This document shows, one piece after another, positions 1 to 14,709 of a stretch of DNA of 14,709 nucleotides. Each line of letters opens with the position of its first letter. Within the stretch, counting starts at the first letter, position 1. Position numbers and translations under genes: made by a program. The stretch comes from a virus (lineage: Duplodnaviria; Heunggongvirae; Uroviricota; Caudoviricetes). Below the pieces are notes generated by a model. It was not told the origin of the DNA. It was given only the letters and a program-made list of their open reading frames with translations, and ran no database searches. The stretch lies in IMG/VR virus record IMGVR_UViG_2541047938_000005; one strand, 5' to 3'.

Positions 1-600
1 ATGGCGCATATACAACTGGTCAAACAAACCTCTTCTGGTTTACTTCTCCCGGCGACGCCGGAGAGTTGCGATTTTCTGCATCAAATCAAAATAGGTGAGT
101 GGATACACGCAGACTTTAAGCGTGTGCGTAACTACGCATTCCACAAGCGTTTTTTCAAACTCCTGCAACTGGGATTCGATTACTGGACTCCGGTCGGTGG
201 GGCGATCACGCCTCGCGAACGAGAACTGCTGTCTGGTTTCGTTGATTACCTGTGCGAATCAGTTGGTCGGGAACACACGCCAGCCCTGAGTGATGCCGCA
301 GAGCAATACCTTAACACCGTTGCGACTCGTAGAACCCGGGATACGGCGTTGCTAAAGTCGTTTGAGGCTTTCCGCGAGTGGGTAACCATTCAGGCCGGAT
401 TTTACACCGAGCATATTTATCCGGACGGTAGCCGTGGGCGTCGGGCAAAATCCATCGCTTTTGCGAATATGGACGAAGTCGAGTTTCAGCAGGTTTATAA
501 ATCTGTACTGAATGTGCTGTGGAACTGGATTCTGTTCCGTAAATTCTCCTCTCAGGAGGAAGTTGAAAATGTGGCCGCACAACTACTGGAGTTTGCGTAA
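1..600 (+). CDS. nin-region protein, DUF1367-like (function unknown)
   Basis: 199-aa ORF starting at window position 1, so the true start may lie upstream. Stop TAA overlaps the next start (TAATG at 598-602), suggesting translational coupling. Family assignment is from memory of lambdoid genes upstream of Q. Confidence 0.65.
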   Translation: MAHIQLVKQTSSGLLLPATPESCDFLHQIKIGEWIHADFKRVRNYAFHKRFFKLLQLGFDYWTPVGGAITPRERELLSGFVDYLCESVGREHTPALSDAAEQYLNTVATRRTRDTALLKSFEAFREWVTIQAGFYTEHIYPDGSRGRRAKSIAFANMDEVEFQQVYKSVLNVLWNWILFRKFSSQEEVENVAAQLLEFA

Positions 601-890
601 TGGTGAATTTACGTAAAGCGGCTAAAGGCCAGATGTGCCAGATCAGAATCCCTGGCTACTGCAATCACAATCCCGAAACCTCTGTGCTGGCGCATTACAG
701 GCTGGCGGGGACGTGCGGAACAGCGACAAAACCACATGATATGCAGGCGGCGATAGCCTGTAGCTCATGCCACGATCTAATCGACGGGCGGGTAAAAACC
801 AGCGATTACACCAAAGAAGAATTGCGCCTGATGCATGCTGAAGGGGTTTTTCGCACACAAGAAATCTGGAGAAAGAAAGGTCATTTATGA
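600..890 (+). CDS. YbcO-like Cys-rich nin-region protein (DUF1364, putative nuclease)
   Basis: 96 aa; motif MxxLRKAAxGxxCQxRIPGxCNxNPETSVLAH and CxxC pairs match what I recall of DLP12 YbcO. Start overlaps the upstream stop, and its own stop overlaps the Q start (ATGA at 887-890). Confidence 0.75.
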   Translation: MVNLRKAAKGQMCQIRIPGYCNHNPETSVLAHYRLAGTCGTATKPHDMQAAIACSSCHDLIDGRVKTSDYTKEELRLMHAEGVFRTQEIWRKKGHL

Positions 891-1429
891 TTTACCCAAC
901 GAATACAGGAAAAAGCGGAGAACACCTTCGCCTCACCACGCTGGAAAGTGTCTGGATTCAGGGAAAACTACGTATGTGGGGGCGCTGGTCGTATATTGGC
1001 GGTGGCAGGTCAGGGAATATGTTCAATCAGTTGTTGGCATCCAAAAAACTGACGAAAACAGCCATTAATGAAGCCCTGCGCAGAATGAAAAAAGCGGGAA
1101 TAGAGAAAGCTGAGCTGGAAGCGTTTTTGCGAGAGATGATCAACGGCAAGCAAAAGAGCTGGCTGGCGCATTGTACTGATGCAGAGGCGTTATGTATTGA
1201 TCGAGTCATAAGTGAGGTGCTGGCAGAGCATCCAGGATTGATTTGCATTCTCCGGCAACGCTATGAAGGGCGGGGGATGACTAAGCGCAAAATGGCTGAA
1301 TTGCTAAATGATGCACACCCAGAGTGGTGTTTTAGCACATGCGAAAAACGGATTGCTAATTGGTTAGCTGTTGCTGAGTATGCCCTATATATTCCCATGC
1401 GTGAATCATTTGCTGAGAAAATGGCTTGA
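887..1429 (+). CDS. Late-gene antitermination protein Q-like
   Basis: 180 aa, positioned right after nin genes and upstream of terminators and the lysis cassette. C-terminal segment MTKRKMAELLNDAHPEWCFSTCEKRIANWLAVAEYALY looks like a DNA-binding helix region. Family call is positional plus remembered similarity, not a search. Confidence 0.6.
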   Translation: MIYPTNTGKSGEHLRLTTLESVWIQGKLRMWGRWSYIGGGRSGNMFNQLLASKKLTKTAINEALRRMKKAGIEKAELEAFLREMINGKQKSWLAHCTDAEALCIDRVISEVLAEHPGLICILRQRYEGRGMTKRKMAELLNDAHPEWCFSTCEKRIANWLAVAEYALYIPMRESFAEKMA

Positions 1430-1507
1430 TTTCTTACGTATAAACTGCTTCAATTTTGCTATGCTTCGCAAAGCTGTATCGCGAGGCGGATTGCAGACAT
1501 GGACATC

Positions 1508-1538
1508 GTAAAAAAACCGCTTAATGCGGTTTTTTTAC
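1508..1538. terminator. Intrinsic terminator, probably bidirectional
   Basis: A-run (1510-1516), stem AACCGC (1515-1520) / GCGGTT (1526-1531), loop TTAAT, then T-run (1530-1536). About 80 nt downstream of the Q stop. Confidence 0.55.
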
Positions 1539-1856
1539 GTCAGGAAAGCAGGGGAGAATGCTGCTAGTTGGGCAACTGGTCTTTCTGCTCCAAATTATAA
1601 CAGAGACCAGTTATAGTTTCGGTGCTGTGTTTTTTTTACAATATTGTGATAACACATTGCTGGCGGGAGTTTTGATATTTCTTGGCAGGGGCTGATGATG
1701 CGTTATCCTGATGTCGTCAACTCATATAAAATGAGATGAGAGATCATTGCAGGGTGGTTTGTAATTCGCTGTTTAGCGGGACAATATGTTGTCTGATACA
1801 AGACACCCGACGCCTCAGATTACTATAATAAAGACGAAGCATCCTTTGTATTGACC

Positions 1857-1882
1857 AACCGCCTGTTTAGGCGGTTCTTTTT
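1857..1882 (+). terminator. Intrinsic terminator (candidate tR'-like element)
   Basis: Stem AACCGCC (1857-1863) / GGCGGTT (1870-1876), loop TGTTTA, followed by CTTTTT. A TATAAT hexamer lies at 1824-1829 without a convincing -35. Confidence 0.5.
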
Positions 1883-2414
1883 GGGCTGGTTTATTGTATG
1901 CCAAATGATTATTAAAAAGGTTGTGTTAATAACAAAATCCGAAATAATATGCCTGCATATTTTTATCTTGCTTATATTCTGCATATTGTGCATAGCAGGC
2001 TCATCCCTGCAATCAAAACTGTATGATGAGTATTTTTTGTTTTCCTTTTTTCCAGTCATCTGATGATGACCTGCTTCTTTTTAATCCGGATCGACATCAG
2101 TTTTTTAAGATAATTCCTGCGAGTTATATGCATAAATGCCACAAACTCCGCATTTTATGTGGTTGGGAGTTGCCGGGCGCGCAGTGAGTTTGCTAAGAAA
2201 ACTCCTGCATGGTGAATCCCCCTGTGCGGTGGGGTGATACCATTAACCTTTTCTGTCGCCGACAGGTATCACGAACATTTTGTTCACCGGGAGGCACCCG
2301 GCACCATGCACTTCAATAGATTCTCTCCACATTATGGATATTCTTTCAGAATATCCCACGCAGACTTTGTGTAAATGTTAACAAATGTGCGTTTTATTTG
2401 ATCTGATTCGCTGT

Positions 2415-2444
2415 TTGAGCGTCCAAAACAACGGTATATATAAT
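2415..2444 (+). promoter_or_regulatory. Candidate sigma70 promoter for the lipoprotein moron
   Basis: TTGAGC (2415-2420), 18-bp spacer, TATAAT (2439-2444, within TATATAAT), about 30 nt upstream of the GAGGA RBS at 2466-2470. Hexamer reading only. Confidence 0.3.
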
Positions 2445-2473
2445 CCTTTACTATATGACATATGTGAGGAAAA

Positions 2474-2902
2474 ATGGGTTTTCGTAGCGCATCAATTCTT
2501 ACGTTGATTATTAGTGGGATTATTATCGGGTGCACTGATGCTGTATCGACAAATTATCATGACCGTACATCATATTACTCCGATAAAGCAATAGAGACAC
2601 AGTATGTGAGTTCATCTGAACGTACTTCTGATGTTAGTGAGGATATCCGTCTGTATGCCCATCAAATCAAGAGCGCCATCGAAAAACAGTTCGGGGATGC
2701 GAGTAAGTATTCAGGAAAAGAGTGTACACTGAGAATGCATATGGCCCCGAATGGCCTTCTACTGGAGGTTAAAAGAGAAAGTGGAGACCTCGATTTATGT
2801 CGTGAAGCGATGAATGCGATAAAGAATGCTGATATACCTGCCCCCCCTTCGCCGGAAGTATATAAAGTATTTCAAAATGGGGTGCTGGATTTTAAACCCT
2901 GA
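2474..2902 (+). CDS. Lipoprotein with TolA C-terminal (domain III)-like module
   Basis: 142 aa. RBS GAGGA 2466-2470. N-terminal signal peptide with lipobox IIGC (Cys then Thr at +2, so no Asp Lol-avoidance signal). C-terminal ~85 aa track the TolA C-terminus as I recall it: YAHQIKSAIEKQF / CTLRMHMAPNGLLLEV / DLCREA / IPAPPSPEVYKVF / LDFKP. Confidence 0.8.
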   Translation: MGFRSASILTLIISGIIIGCTDAVSTNYHDRTSYYSDKAIETQYVSSSERTSDVSEDIRLYAHQIKSAIEKQFGDASKYSGKECTLRMHMAPNGLLLEVKRESGDLDLCREAMNAIKNADIPAPPSPEVYKVFQNGVLDFKP

Positions 2903-3052
2903 TATTTATTGTTTTGTAATAAACGGTTTCGGCTTAGGTTTGTTCTGACACAGCTACGGCACTGAGCTAAATTTAGCGGATAGTCAGCTCTGAGCCAGTG
3001 GCGGACGTAACAACTACTATTGCTGAGATTTTAATGGATTGAGGAGCAAGAA

Positions 3053-3448
3053 GTGGGATTAAAGAAAATCGTTATGTTGACTTTTTGGGTCGGTTTTGTT
3101 GCGGGATGCACACCTTTACACCCTTCAGATTGCCACAAAACTACTGCTACAGGTAGTTGCAGTTCAGGACGCTGGGATGATCAGGATGAATGGGGGGCGC
3201 AAGCGCGGGGAATCAGAGCTGCAATTAATGCCAAACTTGATGAGCCGCATAACTGGAAAGGGAAAAAATGCAGGTTGCATATGGAATTCTCTCAGGATGG
3301 CACGGCGTTAAAAATATCTACCAGTAACGGTGATAAAGCCTATTGCGAAGCGATAAAGTCCGCAGCTCATAAAGCCAAATTTCCGGCCTTCAACAATCCG
3401 GAAGTCTACAGAGATTTTCAGAAATCTGGCTTTGACATGCGAGGTTAG
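3053..3448 (+). CDS. Second, divergent lipoprotein with TolA domain III-like C-terminus
   Basis: 131 aa, GTG start 3053 with GAGGAG RBS 3041-3046. Lipobox VAGC with Thr at +2. C-terminus keeps the same scaffold in divergent form (KKCRLHMEFSQDGTALKI ... GDKAYCEAIKSAAHKAKFPAFNNPEVYRDFQ). No obvious terminator between the two genes, so probably co-transcribed. Confidence 0.7.
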   Translation: MGLKKIVMLTFWVGFVAGCTPLHPSDCHKTTATGSCSSGRWDDQDEWGAQARGIRAAINAKLDEPHNWKGKKCRLHMEFSQDGTALKISTSNGDKAYCEAIKSAAHKAKFPAFNNPEVYRDFQKSGFDMRG

Positions 3449-3573
3449 CTCTTCAATTACTATATCTCATTCATAGCAAACTGACAGATTTGATGATGTT
3501 CTATATACGAAACCTGTGATGTCAAGTCTGAGCTAATACAAATAAACATAATATCAGAGAAATACATTTTATT

Positions 3574-3596
3574 AGCTCGCTACGGCGAGCTTTTTA
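3574..3596 (+). terminator. Intrinsic terminator closing the lipoprotein moron
   Basis: Stem AGCTCGC (3574-3580) / GCGAGCT (3585-3591), loop TACG, followed by TTTTT. Confidence 0.5.
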
Positions 3597-3699
3597 TATT
3601 GCATCGTCTCCAGCATATATATCAATTAAGGCTCTGATTGATGTGTCTGAAAGCCTACACATAATAACTATGCCATCCGTTCCGTGCGGAGGTGAGGCT

Positions 3700-3915
3700 A
3701 TGAAATCCATGGACAAAATTTCAACAGGCATTGCCTACGGCACCTCCGCAGGCAGTGCTGGCTACTGGTTTTTACAGTTGCTCGATAGAGTAACTCCGTC
3801 ACAGTGGGCTGCAATCGGTGTGCTGGGTAGTCTGGTATTTGGCCTGCTGACGTACCTGACAAACCTTTATTTCAAGATTAAAGAAGATAAGCGCAAGGCT
3901 GCGAGAGGTGAATAA
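3700..3915 (+). CDS. S: Class II holin (pinholin), phage 21 S-type, with dual-start motif
   Basis: 71 aa: [26 protein letters not shown] ... [20 protein letters not shown]. Two in-frame starts (Met1 at 3700, Met4 at 3709) fit the antiholin/holin pair known for S21. The ORF track's upstream GTG (3643) is probably not the start; GGAGGTGAGG RBS at 3689-3697. Confidence 0.9.
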
Positions 3916-4412
3916 TGCCTCCATCATTACGAAAAGTCGTTGCTGCTGCTATTGGTGGCGGAGCAATTGCTATAGCATCAGTGTTAATCACTGGCCCAAG
4001 TGGTAACGATGGTCTGGAAGGTGTCAGCTACATACCATACAAAGATATTGTTGGTGTATGGACTGTATGTCACGGGCATACAGGAAAAGACATCATGCTC
4101 GGTAAAACGTATACCAAAGCAGAATGCAAAACACTCTTGAATAAAGACCTTGCCACTGTCGCCAGACAAATTAACCCGTACATCAAAGTCGATATACCGG
4201 AAACAACGCGCGGCGCTCTTTACTCATTCGTTTACAACGTGGGTGCTGGCAATTTCAGAACATCGACGCTTCTTCGCAAAATAAACCAGGGCGATATCAA
4301 AGGCGCATGTGATCAGCTACGTCGCTGGACATATGCTGGCGGTAAGCAATGGAAAGGTCTCATGACTCGTCGTGAGATTGAGCGTGAAATCTGTTTGTGG
4401 GGTCAGCAATGA
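3915..4412 (+). CDS. R: SAR (signal-arrest-release) endolysin, phage 21 R-type lysozyme
   Basis: 165 aa. Gly/Ala-rich N-terminal SAR helix ([20 protein letters not shown]), then lysozyme core with the E..D..T catalytic spacing ([24 protein letters not shown]). Start overlaps the S stop (TAATG). Confidence 0.9.
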
Positions 4413-4873
4413 ACAGAGTAACCGCGATTATCTCCGCTCTGGTTATCTGCATCATCGTCTGCCTGTCATGGGCTGTTAATCATTACCGTGATAACGCCAT
4501 TACCTACAAAGCCCAGCGCGACAAAAATGCCAGAGAACTGAAGCTGGCGAACGCGGCAATTACTGACATGCAGATGCGTCAGCGTGATGTTGCTGCGCTC
4601 GATGCAAAATACACGAAGGAGTTAGCTGATGCGAAAGCTGAAAATGATGCTCTGCGTGATGATGTTGCCGCTGGTCGTCGTCGGTTGCACATCAAAGCAG
4701 TCTGTCAGTCAGTGCGTGAAGCCACCACCGCCTCCGGCGTGGATAATGCAGCCTCCCCCCGACTGGCAGACACCGCTGAACGGGATTATTTCACCCTCCG
4801 GGAACGACTGGTAATGATGCAGGCCCAACTTGAAGGTGCTCAGCAATACATAACCGAGCAGTGTTTAAAGTAA
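4409..4873 (+). CDS. Rz: Rz inner-membrane spanin (i-spanin), lambda-type
   Basis: 154 aa from ATG 4409, overlapping the R stop (ATGA). N-terminal TM segment then coiled-coil periplasmic domain; close to lambda Rz as I recall it. Confidence 0.9.
4629..4814 (+). CDS. Rz1: Rz1 outer-membrane lipoprotein spanin (o-spanin), embedded in Rz in the +1 frame
   Basis: 61 aa: [20 protein letters not shown] (lipobox) followed by a proline-rich segment [23 protein letters not shown] about 8 nt upstream. Fully nested in Rz as in lambda. Confidence 0.85.
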
Positions 4874-5010
4874 AATCTTAACTACAATATGATTCATTTT
4901 GATGATTGTTTCATAAGGAACAGTGAAGTAAGATCTAAGAGGAGTTAAATTTTATACAGTATAATCATAATATTGCAGCAAGGTGGTTATAATTGAAAGA
5001 ATATTTAGAT

Positions 5011-6468
5011 ATGAATACATCTCATGTAAGAGTTGTTACTCATATGTGTGGGTTCCTGGTTTGGCTCTATAGTCTTTCAATGTTGCCACCAATGGTTGTA
5101 GCATTGTTTTATAAAGAAAAAAGCCTGTTCGTTTTCTTTATAACTTTCGTTATATTTTTTTGCATTGGTGGCGGAGCGTGGTATACAACTAAGAAATCTG
5201 GCATTCAATTACGTACCCGTGATGGGTTTATTATAATTGTAATGTTTTGGATTTTGTTTTCTGTTATTAGTGCATTCCCTTTATGGATTGACTCAGAACT
5301 TAATTTAACGTTCATTGATGCTCTGTTTGAAGGGGTTTCTGGAATAACAACAACAGGAGCAACTGTAATTGATGATGTTAGTTCATTACCTCGGGCATAT
5401 TTGTACTATCGGTCACAGTTAAATTTTATAGGTGGTTTAGGAGTTATTGTTCTGGCGGTTGCAGTATTGCCATTATTGGGTATTGGTGGTGCAAAGCTTT
5501 ATCAGTCAGAAATGCCGGGGCCATTTAAGGATGACAAACTCACTCCCCGCCTGGCCGATACGTCACGGACACTGTGGATAACTTATTCTTTATTAGGTAT
5601 TGCTTGTATTGTCTGTTATAGACTTGCAGGAATGCCTTTGTTTGATGCTATTTGTCACGGGATTTCCACAGTTTCGCTTGGTGGTTTCTCAACTCATAGC
5701 GAGAGTATCGGATATTTTAATAACTATTTGGTTGAGCTGGTGGCTGGTTCTTTTTCCCTGCTATCGGCTTTCAACTTCACTCTTTGGTATATTGTTATTA
5801 GCAGAAAAACGATAAAACCTTTAATCAGAGATATTGAACTTCGTTTCTTTCTGTTAATAGCCTTAGGGGTGATCATTGTTACCTCTTTCCAGGTCTGGCA
5901 TATAGGTATGTATGACTTGCATGGAAGTTTTATTCATTCGTTTTTTCTTGCCAGCTCCATGCTCACTGATAATGGTTTAGCTACGCAGGATTATGCAAAC
6001 TGGCCCACGCACACGATAGTGTTTTTGCTGTTGTCAAGTTTCTTTGGGGGATGTATAGGTTCAACCTGTGGTGGAATTAAGTCACTTCGATTTCTTATAC
6101 TTTTCAAACAAAGCAAACACGAGATAAATCAGCTTTCTCATCCCAGAGCGTTGTTGAGTGTAAATGTAGGAGGGAAGATAGTTACAGATCGTGTAATGAG
6201 GTCTGTATGGAGTTTCTTTTTTCTTTATACTCTCTTCACGGTGTTTTTTATACTGGTGTTAAATGGTATGGGATATGATTTTCTTACATCATTTGCAACA
6301 GTGGCTGCATGTATTAATAATATGGGATTAGGTTTTGGGGCTACTGCATCGTCATTCGGAGTGCTTAATGACATTGCAAAATATTTAATGTGCATAGCTA
6401 TGATTCTTGGTCGCCTTGAAATTTATCCTGTTATTATATTGTTTTCAGGTTTTTTTTGGCGCTCCTAA
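5011..6468 (+). CDS. trkG: Trk-system K+ uptake protein TrkG (TrkH/KtrB family)
   Basis: 485 aa from ATG 5011 (MNTSHVRVV...). Multi-pass membrane protein with repeated pore-loop-like glycine motifs (GITTTG, IGGLG, VSLGGF, TCGGIKS). Visibly AT-rich compared with flanking phage genes. trkG is an established Rac cargo gene. Confidence 0.9.
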   Translation: MNTSHVRVVTHMCGFLVWLYSLSMLPPMVVALFYKEKSLFVFFITFVIFFCIGGGAWYTTKKSGIQLRTRDGFIIIVMFWILFSVISAFPLWIDSELNLTFIDALFEGVSGITTTGATVIDDVSSLPRAYLYYRSQLNFIGGLGVIVLAVAVLPLLGIGGAKLYQSEMPGPFKDDKLTPRLADTSRTLWITYSLLGIACIVCYRLAGMPLFDAICHGISTVSLGGFSTHSESIGYFNNYLVELVAGSFSLLSAFNFTLWYIVISRKTIKPLIRDIELRFFLLIALGVIIVTSFQVWHIGMYDLHGSFIHSFFLASSMLTDNGLATQDYANWPTHTIVFLLLSSFFGGCIGSTCGGIKSLRFLILFKQSKHEINQLSHPRALLSVNVGGKIVTDRVMRSVWSFFFLYTLFTVFFILVLNGMGYDFLTSFATVAACINNMGLGFGATASSFGVLNDIAKYLMCIAMILGRLEIYPVIILFSGFFWRS

Positions 6469-6605
6469 TATATGGCTGATTTATAATTGTGAGTTTAATA
6501 TTATGTTGACTCACTCATTGATCCAATACCTAACTTTACCAGCAACACCTCCGCCCCCAGTAGCACTGGCTGCTGGGGTGCGTTTTATTCATAAAGCAAG
6601 GCTGT

Positions 6606-7659
6606 ATGAGCGAGAAATTAAAGATAGTCTATCGCCCATTACAAGAATTGTCACCGTATGCGCACAACGCCAGGACGCACAGTACTGAGCAGGTGGCACA
6701 ACTGGTAGAAAGTATTAAGCAATTCGGCTGGACTAATCCGGTGCTGATTGACGAAAAGGGCGAAATTATTGCGGGTCACGGTCGTGTTATGGCGGCTGAA
6801 ATGCTCAAAATGGATTCTGTTCCGGTCATTGTTCTGTCTGGCCTGACGGATGAGCAGAAAAAGGCGTACCGCCTGGCAGATAATCGCCTGCCGATGAATG
6901 CTGGCTGGGATGAAGATCTGTTGCGGATGGAGCTGTCGGACCTAATCAATGCTGATTTTGATGTCTCCCTGACAGGCTTCATCCCGGCAGAAATTGATGA
7001 ACTGTTGACGGATGTTTTGCCCGGTACAGGAAATGAGGAGGAGCCGTATACGACGAAAATTGATACGCCTGTTTATGAGCCGTCAGGCGGTAAACCGGAT
7101 ATCAGTGAACTGTACGACGATACGAAAACTCAGGAGCTGATCAGCCGGATACGTTCGGCGTCCCTTGAATCATCTCTACCAGTGGCGCGATATAGCAGAA
7201 TTCGACAAGGCAGCGGCGCAGGCTTCCAGAGATGGCAAACCCGAACCGGAATATGGAGGCCTCGGCTTTGTTGATAACGCCATACCCAATCCGGACTGCC
7301 CGAAGTGCTGCGGTGAGGGAACGGGACAGCTTTATATGGCTGATACCACTCTGCTTGATGGGGATGCGCGGCAATTATATGCAGGGGCAAAATTCGGAAA
7401 ATTCGGCGTTGAGATCCTGCTGGAGGATAAGGCTGCCGCCCGGCGTGAATTGTTGCGTTTGTTTTCTGCTGGCGGGGCTTTATGTGCAGATAAGCGGCTA
7501 CGGGAACTGGAAATTGAACGGCGCAGAATGGAAAACCAGAAGCTGCGCAAAGAGATCGAAACGGTGGAAGATAATGAACATCCCCAGCCTGTGGCGATCA
7601 ATATTAATGTGGTTGATGCCAGAGTAAGGAGTGATGAAGATGATCTCTCCGACGCTTAA
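6606..7659 (+). pseudogene. ParB-like N-terminal domain protein (candidate small terminase subunit), reading frame disrupted near 7141-7170
   Basis: Frame 0 ORF 6606-7274 begins with a ParB N-terminal domain-like sequence (LKIVYRPLQELSPYAHNARTHS ... IIAGHGR). A +1 frame ORF is open from 7141 and runs to 7659, ending in a coiled-coil/acidic tail. A one-base shift near 7164-7168 would join them into ~350 aa. Could be a true frameshift, a sequencing error or programmed. Confidence 0.5.
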
Positions 7660-8941
7660 TGTGCCTCAGGCGCGATTTCTTTCAATGCCCCATAAATTTA
7701 AAGCCTATATTGCTGGTTTTGGCTCGGGCAAAACATGGGTTGGGTGTGGCGGCATATGCAAGGGGATTTGGGAGCATCCAGGTATAAATCAGGGATATTT
7801 TGCGCCAACGTATCCCCAAATTCGCGATATTTTTTACCCTACAGTGGAAGAAGTTGCTGCTGACTGGGGATTGAACGTAAAAATTAATGAGGGAAATAAA
7901 GAGGTTCACTTTTATTACGGACGCCAGTATCGGGGAACCACTATCTGCAGATCGATGGAGAAGCCACAAACGATCGTCGGTTTCAAAATTGGTAATGCGT
8001 TGGTGGATGAACTGGACATTTTGCCGAAGGAAAAAGCCAGAACGGCGTGGCGCAAGATAATTGCACGTATGCGTTATAAGATTGATGGACTTCGCAACGG
8101 TATTGACGTTACAACCACGCCGGAAGGATTCAAATTTGTCTACGAGCAGTTTGTTAAAGCCGTGCGTGAAAAAACAGAGCTGGCCTCACTGTATGGTCTG
8201 GTGCAGGCATCTACTTTCGATAATGAAAAGAACCTGCCAGCAGATTACATTCCTTCGCTTCTTGAATCATACCCTCCAGAGCTGATTAAAGCCTATCTTC
8301 GAGGACAGTTTACTAACCTGACAAGTGGTACTGTTTACCATCAGTTTGACCGGAAACTGAATAATTGCGAAGAAGTGGAGCAGCCAGGGGAGCCGATTTA
8401 TATTGGGATGGATTTTAACGTTGGAAAGATGGCGGGAATCGTCCATGTGCTGCGTTTGGGGCTTCCATGTGCGGTAACTGAAATCATCAATGCCTACGAT
8501 ACGCCGGATATGATCCGCATCATTAAAGAACGCTTCTGGCTGTATGATGGGAATGATTACCGGAAAGTGAGGGAAATTTATATTTATCCAGATGCTTCCG
8601 GGGATTCCAGAAAATCAAGTAACGCAAGTACGACGGATATAGCCCAGCTTAAGCAGGCTGGTTTTAACGTTGTGGTGAACAGCTCGAACCCGCCAGTAAA
8701 AGATCGCGTTAACTCAATGAATGCAATGTTCTGCAATGCCAATGGTGAGCGTCGCTATAAAGTTAATGTGAAGCGTTGCCCGTTATATGCCGAATCTCTG
8801 GAGCAACAGGTCTGGGATGAGAAGGGGGAGCCTGATAAAAAATCTGGCAATGATCACCCGAATGATGCCGGAGGTTATTTCATCGTTAAGCAATTCCCTA
8901 TTGTCAAACCGACCGGAAGAGTCACATCACTTCGGATTTAA
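7640..8941 (+). CDS. Terminase large subunit (TerL)
   Basis: Walker A (GFGSGKT), Walker B-like (ALVDELD) and nuclease-domain acidic motifs (IGMDFNV, YPDASGD, NDHPNDAGG). AAGGAG RBS 7626-7631 favours ATG 7640 over the GTG at 7631. About 434 aa, apparently full length. Confidence 0.85.
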   Translation: MISPTLNVPQARFLSMPHKFKAYIAGFGSGKTWVGCGGICKGIWEHPGINQGYFAPTYPQIRDIFYPTVEEVAADWGLNVKINEGNKEVHFYYGRQYRGTTICRSMEKPQTIVGFKIGNALVDELDILPKEKARTAWRKIIARMRYKIDGLRNGIDVTTTPEGFKFVYEQFVKAVREKTELASLYGLVQASTFDNEKNLPADYIPSLLESYPPELIKAYLRGQFTNLTSGTVYHQFDRKLNNCEEVEQPGEPIYIGMDFNVGKMAGIVHVLRLGLPCAVTEIINAYDTPDMIRIIKERFWLYDGNDYRKVREIYIYPDASGDSRKSSNASTTDIAQLKQAGFNVVVNSSNPPVKDRVNSMNAMFCNANGERRYKVNVKRCPLYAESLEQQVWDEKGEPDKKSGNDHPNDAGGYFIVKQFPIVKPTGRVTSLRI

Positions 8942-8943
8942 TT

Positions 8944-9883
8944 ATGGCTGATATATCAACACCCAACCTCGACTATAACGATATGCTGGAGGCGTGGGAT
9001 ATTAACGACGCACTGATGGGCGGTACGCTTGAAATGCGCAGGCAGGGGGAAAATTATCTCCCAAAATGGCCTAACGAAGATGAAGACGCTTATAAAAAAC
9101 GCCTGTCTGTGGCTACGCTACTTCCTGTGTATGAAGAAAGCATCAAGCAAAATATTGGGCGCATATTTGCAGAGCCGACAGTATTGAGTGAGGAAACGCC
9201 GGCAAAAATCAGGGAATATGCAGAAAATATCGACATGGAGGGGAGCCGACTGGATGTGTGGGCGCAGCAATTTTTCAGCCTCGCATTTCAGTATGGTGTG
9301 GCACATGCGCTGGTGGACTATCCACGAACGGATATGAAAGAGATTCGGACAAAAGCCGATGAAAACGCGACCGGTGGAGGGATTCAATATTCACAGTTCG
9401 GCAGGTGTGAAACGAGCGCCAAAGGTTGCTGCAACTGGTTATCTCGTGAATGGAGAGAAAAAAGAAGGCGATGTTCTTATTTCCATTGATACTGGTTCGG
9501 GGAGTATTTCTGCAGGTCAGATTGTTACGTTCGCTGGTGATCCGAATCAGTATGTTGTGGCAGCAGCGACCAGCAATCTGATTACTCTTGCAGCGCCCGG
9601 ACTGCGTCAGGATCTGGCCGATGATACTGCCATCACAGTTGTTGGGGCCTTTACTGCAAATATGGCGTTTGATCGCAACGCGTTTCTGCTGGCATCCCGT
9701 ACTCCGGCAATGCCGGAAGGTGGCGATAATGCTGATGATGTAATGAATGTTACGGACCCGATTTCAGGGATTACGTTCCAGATTGCACTGTATCGTCAGT
9801 ATCGCCAGGTGCGCTATGAAGTTGGACTGGCATGGGGTGTTTCATCAGTGAAGCCGGCACATGGTTGTCTGATTCTTGGTTAA
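8944..9883 (+). pseudogene. Head-module remnant: 5' part of a head gene (tentatively portal-like) joined out of frame to the 3' part of a capsid-like gene
   Basis: ORF 8944-9489 ends in junk-like residues; the next frame (open through 9883) carries a C-terminus with an HK97-fold-capsid-like motif (RTPAMPEGG) and is followed by a strong terminator. No full-length portal, protease or capsid gene sits between TerL and the head-tail genes. Domain identities are tentative. Confidence 0.4.
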
Positions 9884-9891
9884 ACATTCAA

Positions 9892-9913
9892 ACGGGGCTT
9901 CGGCCCCATTTTT
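9892..9913 (+). terminator. Intrinsic terminator after the capsid-like gene end
   Basis: GGGGC (9894-9898), UUCG tetraloop, GCCCC (9903-9907), then ATTTTT. Confidence 0.6.
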
Positions 9914-9925
9914 AATGGGGGGCAT

Positions 9926-10102
9926 ATGGCCGGATTAACTAAAGAGCAAAGAGCACAGCGTGAAGCCGCACAAAAAACGCAAATTGAGTTAGTGGTTATG
10001 GTGACCGATTATCAGATGTTTCCCGGCGCACCAACTATCGCTAATGTTCATCCTGATGAAGTTGACAACTGGAAGGCTATGGGCTGGAAAACTCAGGAGT
10101 AA
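9926..10102 (+). CDS. Small hypothetical protein (58 aa)
   Basis: ATG 9926 to TAA 10100-10102, below the ORF-track threshold. Fills the gap between the terminator and the next gene; translation MAGLTKEQRAQREAAQKTQIELVV... is not low-complexity. Weak RBS. Confidence 0.25.
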   Translation: MAGLTKEQRAQREAAQKTQIELVVMVTDYQMFPGAPTIANVHPDEVDNWKAMGWKTQE

Positions 10103-10105
10103 CAC

Positions 10106-10501
10106 ATGATCACTTACGTGACCTGTGATGACGTTGATAATGCGTTTGGGAACGCCTGGACGAGTGAGAACGCTAAAAATAAAGCTGTTTTAATGGCTAA
10201 TGCCTGGCTTAATGGCTTCAACCTGAAAATTAACCCATCCCGTATTCCGGAAGAGGTAAAACTTGCGGGAGCATATGCAGCCAGAATTGCCTCATTCGGT
10301 AAGTTGTTTCAGCAGAAAAATGATTCTGGCGTTGTTATCAGTAAAGCCGTGTCGGCTGACGGGGTCAGTGTATCGAAATCATTTTCTGAGTTGCCAGCAA
10401 ACAGCACTGCATTGCTTGAACCCGATTTACAGCTTGCGATAGCACTGCTGAAACCGTACGGACTTAGTCGCTCACAAGTCAGGGTTGTGAGGGGGGGATA
10501 A
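10106..10501 (+). CDS. Head-tail connector protein (gp6-like), putative
   Basis: 131 aa, CAGGAG RBS 10094-10099, first of four tightly coupled small genes between the capsid remnant and the major tail gene. Assigned by position and size. Confidence 0.45.
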   Translation: MITYVTCDDVDNAFGNAWTSENAKNKAVLMANAWLNGFNLKINPSRIPEEVKLAGAYAARIASFGKLFQQKNDSGVVISKAVSADGVSVSKSFSELPANSTALLEPDLQLAIALLKPYGLSRSQVRVVRGG

Positions 10502-10884
10502 TGGGGCTTCGTGAAGAGATTCAGTCAGAGGTTGCCGCTGCTTTTGATGAGGATTTAGCGGACGCCGTGAGTGATTTTTCTGGTTCTTACGTTACGCACC
10601 GGCACTGGGATCCTGTGACGGAAACTGGCGGCGAATCCACCGCAATCTATACCGGGCGAGGCGTGTTGACACGTTATAAGCTGGGCAGAATTGATGGGAT
10701 TAATATTTTGCATGGTGACCTTAAATTAACCGCTCTGGTATGCGAGGTTACGGATAAACCAGCTGTCGACCATATTATTGAGATTTATGATCCTGTATCA
10801 AGGCAGTTACAACGATACGAGGTAATTACAGCAAGTGTAGATCCTTCCGCATCAGTTTACTCTATCCAGTTAAGGAGAGCGTAA
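10501..10884 (+). CDS. Head-tail adaptor / head closure protein, putative
   Basis: 127 aa; start overlaps the upstream stop (TAATG). Positional assignment. Confidence 0.4.
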   Translation: MGLREEIQSEVAAAFDEDLADAVSDFSGSYVTHRHWDPVTETGGESTAIYTGRGVLTRYKLGRIDGINILHGDLKLTALVCEVTDKPAVDHIIEIYDPVSRQLQRYEVITASVDPSASVYSIQLRRA

Positions 10885-11265
10885 ATGGCAAAGGCATGGG
10901 ATATAGAACCGTCAATATTTGCCGGGATGATTGAGGAAGATGTAGGGCTGAAGATTCGCTACATCGCTATGCAGATTCTTACTGCTATTGATATTGCTGC
11001 TCCGGTTGATACCGGACGTTTCAGAAATAACAACCTGGTGTCGTTACAGCATCCCGATTTTGGTATATCTGATAACGTGGATCCGAACGGTACGATTGCT
11101 GTTCAGCGTGGGATCGGGGTTATTTCGAAAGCTGCAAATTACGGGGTTATTTATATCCAGAATAACCTTCCTTATGCAGAGGCTCTTGAAAACGGTCATT
11201 CACAACAAGCGCCAACTGGCGTGTATGCCAACGCTTTTCATGGTGTTTTACAGGCTTACAAATGA
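10885..11265 (+). CDS. HK97 gp10-family neck/tail completion protein
   Basis: 126 aa; contains the PVDTGRFR motif I associate with the HK97 gp10 family; AGGAG RBS upstream. Confidence 0.55.
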   Translation: MAKAWDIEPSIFAGMIEEDVGLKIRYIAMQILTAIDIAAPVDTGRFRNNNLVSLQHPDFGISDNVDPNGTIAVQRGIGVISKAANYGVIYIQNNLPYAEALENGHSQQAPTGVYANAFHGVLQAYK

Positions 11266-11654
11266 AGTTTACTGAAATCAGAAATACGGTTATTTCCAGA
11301 ATGACGGCACAGACGATTATTGATGGAAAAGACGTATTGTATCCGAACGGGCCAACGTTCGATCCTTCCGGTAAGTTAATCTGGGCGCGGTTAAGTAATA
11401 TTCCCGGGCAGGCTGGAGTTAATGAAATTGGCGCGGGGCCGGTTGTTTATCGCACGGGGATAATCATTATTCAGTTATTTGTCCCCGCAGGTTCTGGTTC
11501 AAAACTCATTACTGAGACAGCCGATAAATTGCGGGAACTGTTTGAGTTTCAGGATGACGATCGTCTCAGTTACCAGGCTGTTTCCTCAATAGCCGTTGGC
11601 GAAAAGAATGGCTGGTTCCAGCTTAATCTTCAAATTCCATATCGCGCGCTCTAG
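11262..11654 (+). CDS. Tail terminator / tail completion protein (gpU-like), putative
   Basis: 130 aa; ATGA overlap with the upstream gene; sits immediately before the major tail gene. Confidence 0.4.
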   Translation: MKFTEIRNTVISRMTAQTIIDGKDVLYPNGPTFDPSGKLIWARLSNIPGQAGVNEIGAGPVVYRTGIIIIQLFVPAGSGSKLITETADKLRELFEFQDDDRLSYQAVSSIAVGEKNGWFQLNLQIPYRAL

Positions 11655-11680
11655 CGCAATTAATGACATAGGAGGCTCCT

Positions 11681-12643
11681 GTGAGTTCAGGTGCAAAGGT
11701 TATCTCGGCATTTATCCGGGAGACGGTTGCAGGCACTACGCCAGCAAGTGGTGACTGGAGTTTATTAAAACGCACAAGCTGGGGAGTAAAACCCACCCAG
11801 AATAAAGGCGAAAATAATGAGATTGGTGGCTCCCGGATGGCTCAGGGGGCGACGCCTGGCACTGTGGATGTCGGCGGTGATGTTGGTACCAAATTTCGCT
11901 GGGGTCAACATGATGATTTTCTTGCATCCTGTTTCGGCGCGGAATGGTCAGGCGATTCTCTGACAATGGGGAATGAGCGAATAACATTTTCTCTGGCGAC
12001 CTATGCGTCCGATGTCGGAATTGCCTCTGTCGTCAGAGGAGCGCAGGTTGGCTCATGGAAAATGCAGATCCCTAACGACGGCGATATTACAGCGACCGTA
12101 ACCTTTGCCGGACTGGACTGGGAATCAAAGGCCGATGATACGAATTTTATCAAAGGCGAACCTGTGGATAGTGCAGGAAAGCTACGTTATTCGTTTAAGG
12201 AGGTTTCAGCAGTAAGCCTGAATGGTGTTGCCGGAGGTAACGGTTTTTGTATCGACAGTTTTGATATTCAGTTCGATAACAAACTCCAGACACAGCGTTG
12301 TATCGGGACTGGCTCGCCTTATGCAGGAGCAAATATTCCGACTACTTTTACACCGTCCGGTACGGTGACGCTTTCATGGTCTAAAGCCGCGTGGGAAATC
12401 TGGAGTAAAACACTGACTGGAGAAACAGTTCCGTTCAGCTTCACGCTTTCGAATGGAGAGGGGGCATACACTTTCAGTTTCCCGAAGGTTCAGGTGTCAG
12501 GTGAATGGCCTGATGGGGGTAATAGCGACATTATCCAGGTTCAATTGAGCATTACCGCAGCAGATGAAGCACCTACGATAACCAGAAAAAAAAATTCCCC
12601 GGCTGCCGTGATCGCAAAAGCCAGTGCTGAGGCGATTAGTTGA
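11681..12643 (+). CDS. Major tail (tube) protein, putative
   Basis: 320 aa, GTG start with GGAGG RBS. Gly/Ser/Thr-rich, beta-type composition, positioned between neck genes and the chaperone-like gene. Confidence 0.5.
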   Translation: MSSGAKVISAFIRETVAGTTPASGDWSLLKRTSWGVKPTQNKGENNEIGGSRMAQGATPGTVDVGGDVGTKFRWGQHDDFLASCFGAEWSGDSLTMGNERITFSLATYASDVGIASVVRGAQVGSWKMQIPNDGDITATVTFAGLDWESKADDTNFIKGEPVDSAGKLRYSFKEVSAVSLNGVAGGNGFCIDSFDIQFDNKLQTQRCIGTGSPYAGANIPTTFTPSGTVTLSWSKAAWEIWSKTLTGETVPFSFTLSNGEGAYTFSFPKVQVSGEWPDGGNSDIIQVQLSITAADEAPTITRKKNSPAAVIAKASAEAIS

Positions 12644-12691
12644 TTTTCCGTTATTCCTCCTGTGGTACTGCCCTACAGGGGGACGCATTGA

Positions 12692-13153
12692 ATGAGGTTA
12701 TGGATGTTTATTCTTAATCAGAAAATTATCATTGGTGGAGAACGCTGGTTTACGCCAATGAAGGACTTAAAACCTGTAGACGGGTTAAAACTGTTGGTGG
12801 CAAGCAGCGATAACGATCAGTATCGCTCCCGTAATGCATTAATCCGTCGCCACATTGAGAAAATGGATGCCAGTTTGCACGTCGGAACGAAGGAGTTTGA
12901 TATTTCAAAGGTTTCCGAGGTGGATTCTGTTGATGATTTACTCATTGATAATGCCGCTCGTTATCTGCTGAAAGACTGGAAAGGGGTTGGTGAACTGGTT
13001 AATGGTGTTGAGGTTGCACTGGAATATACGGCAGAACGAGGGATCGCGCTGCTTAAGCAGAATCCAGAGTTGTACTGGCAGATCCTTGCAGAAGCAGCCA
13101 GCATCGCCCAGGGTAAAGAGCAGCAGAAGCAGGATACGATAAAAAAGCCATAG
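12692..13153 (+). CDS. Tail assembly chaperone-like protein (gpG-like), putative
   Basis: 153 aa, acidic, immediately after the major tail gene. No in-frame or -1 continuation into a T/tape-measure ORF; ends at TAG 13151-13153. Confidence 0.4.
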   Translation: MRLWMFILNQKIIIGGERWFTPMKDLKPVDGLKLLVASSDNDQYRSRNALIRRHIEKMDASLHVGTKEFDISKVSEVDSVDDLLIDNAARYLLKDWKGVGELVNGVEVALEYTAERGIALLKQNPELYWQILAEAASIAQGKEQQKQDTIKKP

Positions 13154-13276
13154 CTGCCCAGCGGTGGTTATCGGAGTTCGGGGGAGAAAGGGGGGAAAAG
13201 GCAAGATGGAAGCGAGAAAAACTCAGGTTGCCACCGATATCCAACAGCGTATGGAAATATCATTCACCTGAAAGGG

Positions 13277-14125
13277 ATGACAGCCGTTGGCGAAGGTGAG
13301 TTACTCATCGGCTGGAGTGGTACAAGCGGTGCTCATGCTCCGGCATTTATTCGTTCACGACGGGATACGACCGACGCAAACTGGTCGCCGTGGGCGCAGC
13401 TTTACACCTCGGCTCATCCTCCTGCAGAGTTTTATCCAGTCGGTGCACCAATCCCGTGGCCATCAGATACCGTTCCGTCTGGTTATGCCCTGATGCAGGG
13501 GCAGACTTTTGACAAATCTGCATACCCGAAACTTGCAGTTGCTTATCCGTCAGGCGTGATCCCTGATATGCGTGGCTGGACGATTAAGGGCAAGCCCGCC
13601 AGTGGTCGGGCCGTATTATCTCAGGAACAGGACGGCATTAAATCGCACACCCACAGCGCCAGCGCATCCAGTACGGATTTGGGGACGAAAACCACATCGT
13701 CGTTTGATTACGGAACCAAATCCACGAATAACACCGGGGTGCATACCCATAGTATTAGCGGGACCGCAAATAGTGCTGGTGCGCACCAACACAAGAGTTC
13801 CGGTGCATTTGGTGGCACGAACACGAGCATTTTCCCTAATGGTTATACCGCGATTTCAAATCTAAGCGCGGGGATTATGAGCACAACAAGCGGTAGTGGC
13901 CAGACTCGTAATGCAGGGAAGACATCATCAGATGGTGCTCATACCCACTCGCTGTCCGGCACTGCTGCAAGCGCAGGCGCACATGCACATACTGTCGGTA
14001 TTGGTGCTCATACGCACTCCGTTGCGATTGGTTCACATGGACACACCATCACCGTTAACGCTGCTGGTAACGCGGAAAACACCGTCAAAAACATCGCATT
14101 TAACTATATTGTGAGGCTTGCATAA
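13277..14125 (+). CDS. stf: Side tail fiber protein, C-terminal receptor-binding portion only (collar-like domain plus His-x-His repeats)
   Basis: 282 aa. [50 protein letters not shown] followed by repeated HTHS/HAHT/HGHT motifs and the lambda Stf-like ending [14 protein letters not shown]. The long N-terminal shaft of full-length Stf (about 700-1100 aa) is missing. Confidence 0.8.
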
Positions 14126-14709
14126 TGGCATTCAGAATGAGTGAACAACCACGGACCATAAAAATTTATAATCTGCTGGCCGGAACTAATGAATTTATTG
14201 GTGAAGGTGATGCATATATTCCGCCTCATACAGGTCTGCCAGCAAACAGTACCGATATTGCACCGCCAGATATTCCGGCTGGCTTCGTGGCTGTTTTCAA
14301 CAGTGATGAGTCATCGTGGCATCTCGTTGAAGATCATCGGGGTAAAACGGTTTATGACGTGGCTTCCGGCGACGCGTTATTTATTTCTGAACTCGGTCCG
14401 TTACCGGAAAATGTTACCTGGTTATCGCCGGAAGGGGAGTTTCAGAAGTGGAACGGCACAGCCTGGGTGAAGGATACGGAAGCAGAAAAACTGTTCCGGA
14501 TCCGGGAGGCGGAAGAAACAAAAAACAACCTGATGCAGGTAGCCAGTGAGCATATTGCGCCGCTTCAGGATGCTGCAGATCTGGAAATTGCAACGGAGGA
14601 AGAAATCTCGTTGCTGGAAGCATGGAAAAAGTATCGGGTATTGCTGAACCGTGTTGATACGTCAACTGCACCTGATATTGAGTGGCCTACGAACCCTGTC
14701 AGGGAGTAA
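14125..14709 (+). CDS. tfa: Tail fiber assembly protein (Tfa)
   Basis: 194 aa beginning [34 protein letters not shown], characteristic of lambdoid Tfa/TfaR-type chaperones. Start overlaps the stf stop (TAATG). Stop codon is at the window end. Confidence 0.9.

Follow-up and report, generated by a model that had tools for sequence, protein, structure and literature searches.

A portal-capsid gene scar and two further private deletions in the late genes of an Escherichia coli Rac prophage

The DNA analysed here (the window) is a stretch of 14,709 nucleotides, virus record IMGVR_UViG_2541047938_000005, which is contained as an exact substring in KE702357.1 of the Escherichia coli draft genome GCA_000461255.1. 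Its gene content points to the late region of a Rac prophage. The markers trkG, ynaK and ydaY all lie within it: trkG as a TrkH-family open reading frame (ORF) at 4993-6468, ynaK as the ParB-like gene described below, and ydaY as a YdaY-family ORF at 12692-13153, the names being those that RefSeq uses on near-identical DNA. In the closest complete relative, O78 strain 3 (NZ_CP084096.1), the early arm adjoins ttcA and includes intR, xisR, rcbA, ralR, recT, recE, racC, kilR and sieB; its content is restricted to int, xis, recET, kil, sieB, repressor and replication genes. It is the combination of intR, xisR, recET, kilR and sieB beside ttcA in this relative with the three markers in the window that identifies the element as Rac.

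The left part of the window carries several features that are separate from the head genes. Two small genes on the plus strand (2474-2902 and 3053-3448), located upstream of the lysis cassette, encode proteins with a TolA C-terminal domain and lipoprotein-like N-termini. An Rfam match to the sRNA family STnc100 (2177-2363, plus strand; 86.6 bits vs a gathering score of 47) sits between a DUF1133 Q-like gene and these TolA-like genes. Strain 190 (NZ_CP020520.1) carries tRNA-Thr and tRNA-Gly at the corresponding place, and the window contains no tRNA. Rfam and tRNA scans found no match inside 8944-10105.

The packaging genes are all encoded on the plus strand. The ParB/YnaK-like gene (6606..7274; Pfam ParB_N, phrog_620) is truncated, since its alignment to intact relatives breaks at 7167/7168; the ORF comprises about 187 native codons and then continues out of frame into TerS DNA. 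At this deletion junction (7167..7168) 1,946 bp have been lost between sites that share a 2-bp microhomology (GA), as determined by blastn and from the junction sequences. This removed the C-terminal part of ParB, a TAGT-like glycosyltransferase gene, a 69-codon ORF and roughly the first 200 codons of TerS, and the junction is present in 0 of 5,426 complete E. coli genomes. The remaining TerS DNA (7165..7659) matches phrog_29114 and the C-terminal end of phrog_51, the intact protein having 364 aa. TerL (7640..8941; 433 aa; Pfam Terminase_6N and Terminase_6C) is full length, and its protein is identical to that of strain 190. Because TerS is reduced to its C-terminal part, this intact TerL is left without a working partner. 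In strain 190 (locus L003, 12391-13323), the glycosyltransferase-like gene deleted from the window lies between the ParB-like gene and TerS and encodes 310 aa, with a Pfam TAGT (TET-associated glycosyltransferase) match at E = 3.4e-35 and the RefSeq name "GREB1-related protein"; it may represent a predicted DNA-modification function beside the packaging genes.

On the ORF map, the head-gene remnant falls in the interval from the end of TerL (8941) to the start of the first head-tail adaptor gene (10106). It occupies 8944-9883, which is 940 bp or 313 codons, divided between frame 1 and frame 2. The frame 1 ORF (8944-9489, 181 aa) consists of portal residues 1-145 followed by 36 out-of-frame codons and a stop. 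Its portal part (8944..9377, plus strand) contains codons 1-145 of 468, retains the native start two bases past the TerL stop, and is identical to the strain 190 portal at 145/145 positions of the protein alignment. Against the portal family phrog_145, ORF residues 1-144 match profile positions 7-147 of 493 (E = 1.8e-51). Pfam gives no match for this half; DUF4055, which corresponds to residues 249-386 of the intact portal, is wholly deleted in the window. With a phrog_145 match short of full length and DUF4055 missing, 8944-9489 is a gene fragment and not a portal. Translation and protein alignment show that the tail of the ORF (9378..9489, plus strand), 36 codons and a stop, is read from capsid DNA.

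The frame 2 ORF (9359-9883, 174 aa) encodes the C-terminal part, residues 212-379, of a P22-type major capsid protein. Its ATG at 9359 is located in portal DNA and is a start by chance. The capsid part proper (9378..9883, plus strand) encodes residues 212-379 of 379 and the stop, in a frame that differs from that of the portal fragment. It matches positions 205-383 of 385 of the major head family phrog_283 (E = 2.1e-58) and, at the C-terminal end only (positions 331-423 of 423), Pfam P22_CoatProtein (PF11651), with a score of 23.5 that is slightly below the 24-bit cut-off. The retained residues are identical to those of the strain 190 capsid, and residues 1-211 are missing. This ORF, too, is a coat-protein fragment, as it falls short of a full-length P22-type (HK97-fold) protein. 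The sequence-only reading had described room for about 313 codons in two frames between TerL and the head-tail joining genes, a 5' part resembling the start of a head protein and a 3' part resembling a capsid C-terminus; separate profiling of the two halves with Pfam and PHROG bears this out and places them in two different protein families.

A terminator-like hairpin with a T run (9894..9912, plus strand), recognized by terminator scan and folding, follows about 10 nt past the capsid stop and lies in DNA common to the intact relatives. It consists of GGGGC-TTCG-GCCCC (9894-9907) and then ATTTTT. A terminator was thus correctly read after the capsid sequence, but the word "strong" used for it was somewhat generous: the stem is short (5 bp, all GC), and the 43-nt fold has -12.2 kcal/mol with z = -1.9. 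Further downstream, an intact and conserved 58-codon ORF (9926..10102, plus strand; 58 aa) covers phrog_1514 at positions 1-58 of 58, differs from strain 190 at 1 residue, and is located between capsid and adaptor genes in the intact relatives as well. It is separate from the head-gene remnant, even though it lies within the coordinates 8944-10105 originally given.

The genes for head-tail adaptor (Ad1), head closure (Hc1), tail completion, tail terminator and tail tube occupy 10106..12643 on the plus strand (PHROG, Pfam). All five are free of internal stops and differ from strain 190 at 0-4 residues. Past ydaY, a third junction (13233..13239) joins the DNA downstream of this gene to the C-terminus of a side tail fibre: homology to the relatives stops at 13239, and tail-fibre homology begins at 13233-13236. 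The junction was found in none of the complete genomes searched, and the window is without the tape-measure and tail-tip genes that the relatives carry past ydaY. The two last ORFs of the window encode the C-terminal 282 codons of a side tail-fibre gene, with a Collar domain and fibre repeats (13277-14125), and a tail-fibre assembly gene (14125-14709), inside which there is a full-length Rfam match to IS009 (14468-14666, plus strand, 220.9 bits). To the right of the window, a four-gene ABC metal-uptake cluster likened to sitABCD (ABC-3, ABC_tran and ZnuA families) begins less than about 200 bp past the tail-fibre assembly gene (15979-19428 of source contig L005), and a Usp gene is next to it. 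The position of this cluster and the Usp gene directly past the tail-fibre assembly gene indicates that the right end of the prophage is also cut short.

The origin of the two head-gene halves becomes apparent from the gene order of the intact relatives, strain 190 and ON470595.1. In these, ParB is followed by the TAGT-like glycosyltransferase, the 69-codon ORF, TerS (364 aa), TerL (433 aa), portal (468 aa), a Mu-F-like minor head protein (370 aa), a DUF6651 protein (254 aa) that matches a scaffolding family, the P22-type capsid (379 aa), the 58-aa ORF and the connector genes. Alignment by blastn places window positions 7167-9377 on 14116-16326 of the strain 190 locus (L003) with one mismatch, and positions 9375-13239 on 19994-23858 at 99.5% identity and ungapped, so that 16327-19993 of that locus, 3,667 bp, are absent from the window. 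Two genes, those for the Mu-F-like minor head protein and the DUF6651 scaffold-like protein, are missing in full, together with portal codons 146-468 and capsid codons 1-211.

The deletion junction lies at 9375..9377, and its sequence reads GACCGGTGG to the left of the join and AGGGATTC to the right. The undeleted sequence runs TGG-TCGTCC onwards from the portal site and GCGTC-TGG up to the capsid site, leaving TGG alone in common, a 3-bp microhomology. Comparison of the junction sequences revealed neither an IS nor a long repeat at this position. Both flanks have counterparts, at 99.5-100% identity, in uninterrupted prophage DNA from other E. coli, which holds 3,667 bp more between them, and the observation is not due to chance. 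The internal deletion proposed from the sequence alone, which would fuse the beginning of one head gene to the last part of the capsid gene, is therefore confirmed by the intact relatives, and the breakpoint that had been expected near 9360-9400 falls within that interval. The statement that TerL is intact also stands. The further claim that portal, protease and intact capsid genes are all absent is correct for portal and capsid, of which only fragments remain, but not applicable to the protease, since the intact relatives use a scaffold and have no protease gene in this head type. A second portal or capsid gene in the same prophage was sought in the window and in 20.5 kb of the source contig, and none was found; the early arm of O78 strain 3, with the gene content given above, contains neither.

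The 9375-9377 junction is confined to this lineage among the genomes searched. Of 5,426 complete E. coli genomes, 718 contain the 3,667-bp segment that is missing here, at a coverage of at least 80%, and 790 contain both halves of a 201-bp query centred on the junction; the junction itself occurs in 0 of the 5,426, no place covering 80% of the query. An exact-match scan of the GTDB species representative genomes with a 39-nt junction sequence returned none. The exact 181-aa fusion product is recorded just twice, once on a contig of the NCBI draft and once on a contig that Logan assembled from SRR958752. The literature on Rac prophage decay and head-gene deletions yielded general papers on Rac and on defective prophages and none on this allele.

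An allele known from a draft genome, with all three junctions unique to the source among the genomes searched, raises the question of an assembly artefact, in which the draft assembly would have skipped 3.7 kb that are present in the real genome. This is contradicted by the independent Logan contig of SRR958752, which is 100% identical to window positions 4764-13265 (8.5 kb) and thereby crosses all three junctions; the contigs are listed in 2 and 4 samples. Moreover, the homology at the junction is 3 bp only, and there is no repeat for an assembler to collapse. The Logan agreement and the repeat-free junction together make an artefact very unlikely. Another reading takes the two overlapping ORFs in different frames as a single gene expressed through a programmed ribosomal frameshift, and one protein family with a conserved frameshift had indeed been named as the result that would overturn the deletion. 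The two halves, however, belong to two unrelated families, each covering one end only of its profile, and in hundreds of genomes they lie 3,667 bp and two whole genes apart: the 718 complete genomes mentioned above hold these 3,667 bp, with four genes, between them, and no other complete genome carries the junction. The split into two families and the separation in relatives refute the frameshift, and its chance of being right is practically nil. A phage satellite (PICI or P4-like) was likewise considered and rejected, as three simple deletions are all that interrupts the collinearity of the window with full-length prophages, to which it is 99-100% identical; the gene list contains no satellite-type genes.

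It may also be asked whether the truncated products have been retained for a function, either because the 181-aa portal fragment interferes with the head assembly of related superinfecting phages or because TerL and the connector and tube proteins have been domesticated. The native start of the portal fragment, two bases past the TerL stop, and the stop-free state of TerL and the five connector and tube genes would be in line with such a role. Yet the retained DNA is 99.5-100% identical to that of intact prophages, so that the unbroken genes reflect recency and have no power to reveal selection. In addition, the portal and capsid parts are joined in different frames, a single lineage has this allele, and relatives lose different parts of the region with no common retained core. 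We consider retention for function distinctly unlikely. Three private deletions in one prophage could nevertheless hint at selection over neutral decay, and a bolder version holds that they represent a selected inactivation, with an expressed 181-aa portal stub, coupled to the intact TerL, poisoning head assembly or packaging of superinfecting Rac-like phages. If true, this would be a defence derived from a broken prophage; we regard it as highly unlikely.

The observations are very probably explained by one event of illegitimate recombination, mediated by microhomology, in this Rac prophage, with an out-of-frame portal'-'capsid scar as its result. The lineage has three private deletions, of which this is one. 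Recombination between the two TGG triplets would have removed the 3,667 bp in one event, the outcome being an out-of-frame pair of portal' and 'capsid pseudogenes. The portal start is still closely coupled to TerL, and transcription of the late operon could therefore yield a 181-aa truncated product; the capsid fragment has a chance ATG only. The retained residues are identical to those of the intact proteins, which implies that no decay has accumulated since the deletion and suggests that it is recent. With the portal, scaffold and coat protein genes missing, no prohead assembly would be expected, and the intact TerL appears stranded in a prophage unable to build or fill heads. The sequence-only reading had concluded that the element cannot form capsids by itself, and the gene content argues for the same conclusion; it is conceivable that head proteins are provided in trans by a helper prophage at another place in the genome. 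Taken with the loss of the TerS N-terminus, the tape-measure gene and the tail-tip genes, the deletion makes this a defective prophage in progressive decay.

For annotation, the ORFs at 8944-9883 should be recorded as the pseudogene fragments portal' and 'capsid and not as hypothetical proteins, and the prophage should be scored as defective despite its intact TerL. The phenomenon is an ordinary decay of a well-known cryptic prophage and involves no new biology. Its value is that of an example of prophage erosion with breakpoints defined to the base, in which three small-microhomology deletions are found in one Rac lineage.

Several known prophages share features with this element. The late regions of strain 190 and of vB_EcoS-683R6 (ON470595.1) are 99.2-100% identical over the shared segments and have the same gene order; by contrast, they carry the full run from ParB to capsid followed by the tape-measure and tail-tip genes. 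The ON4705xx records derive from a sequence survey of clinical isolates. Defective lambdoid prophages of O157 Sakai resemble the window element in having deleted or disrupted morphogenesis genes: their portal, head, tail and terminase defects have been scored gene by gene, and in silico at least one genetic defect was present in all Sakai prophages but one (Asadulghani et al., 2009; PMC2669165). Some of these defective prophages were still excised, packaged and transferred, most likely through complementation by co-resident prophages (Asadulghani et al., 2009).

Among closer relatives, O78 strain 3 is 99.99% identical over window positions 1-7168 and 100% identical over 7167-9377 and 11909-13239. 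It differs in an independent deletion, in which a 1,158-bp portal stub is joined to the tail-tube gene, and it retains TerS and the tape-measure gene; neither of the two alleles is derivable from the other. E. coli TB354 (locus L002) carries IS1 and IS3 elements in TerL, and at 10115-11395 of this locus an IS3-family element directly adjoins a capsid stub whose first base lies about 16 bp upstream of the window breakpoint. This element and the similar length of the capsid fragment suggested an IS-mediated deletion for the window as well, which is ruled out by the offset of about 16 bp between the starts and by the lack of an IS in the window. The TB354 and window events are independent, though near-coincident in position. 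The 1,946-bp ParB-TerS deletion was also considered as a step common to O78 strain 3 and TB354 and was discarded, since both retain the segment (blastn). In other sister loci, ParB leads straight to the tail fibre (L009) or trkG to the capsid gene (L016). As a rule, then, members of the family have this late region eroded, through many independent deletions.

The Rac prophage of K-12 belongs in the same comparison. It shares with the window trkG, the ParB-like ynaK, ydaY and a right end with tail fibre and tfa, and both elements are defective through lost morphogenesis genes. The K-12 map is not known to hold terminase, connector or tube genes in the interval from ynaK to ydaY. The window variant, by contrast, retains TerL, the five connector and tube genes and two head-gene stubs, and it thus represents a less eroded state than K-12 Rac, with private breakpoints of its own.
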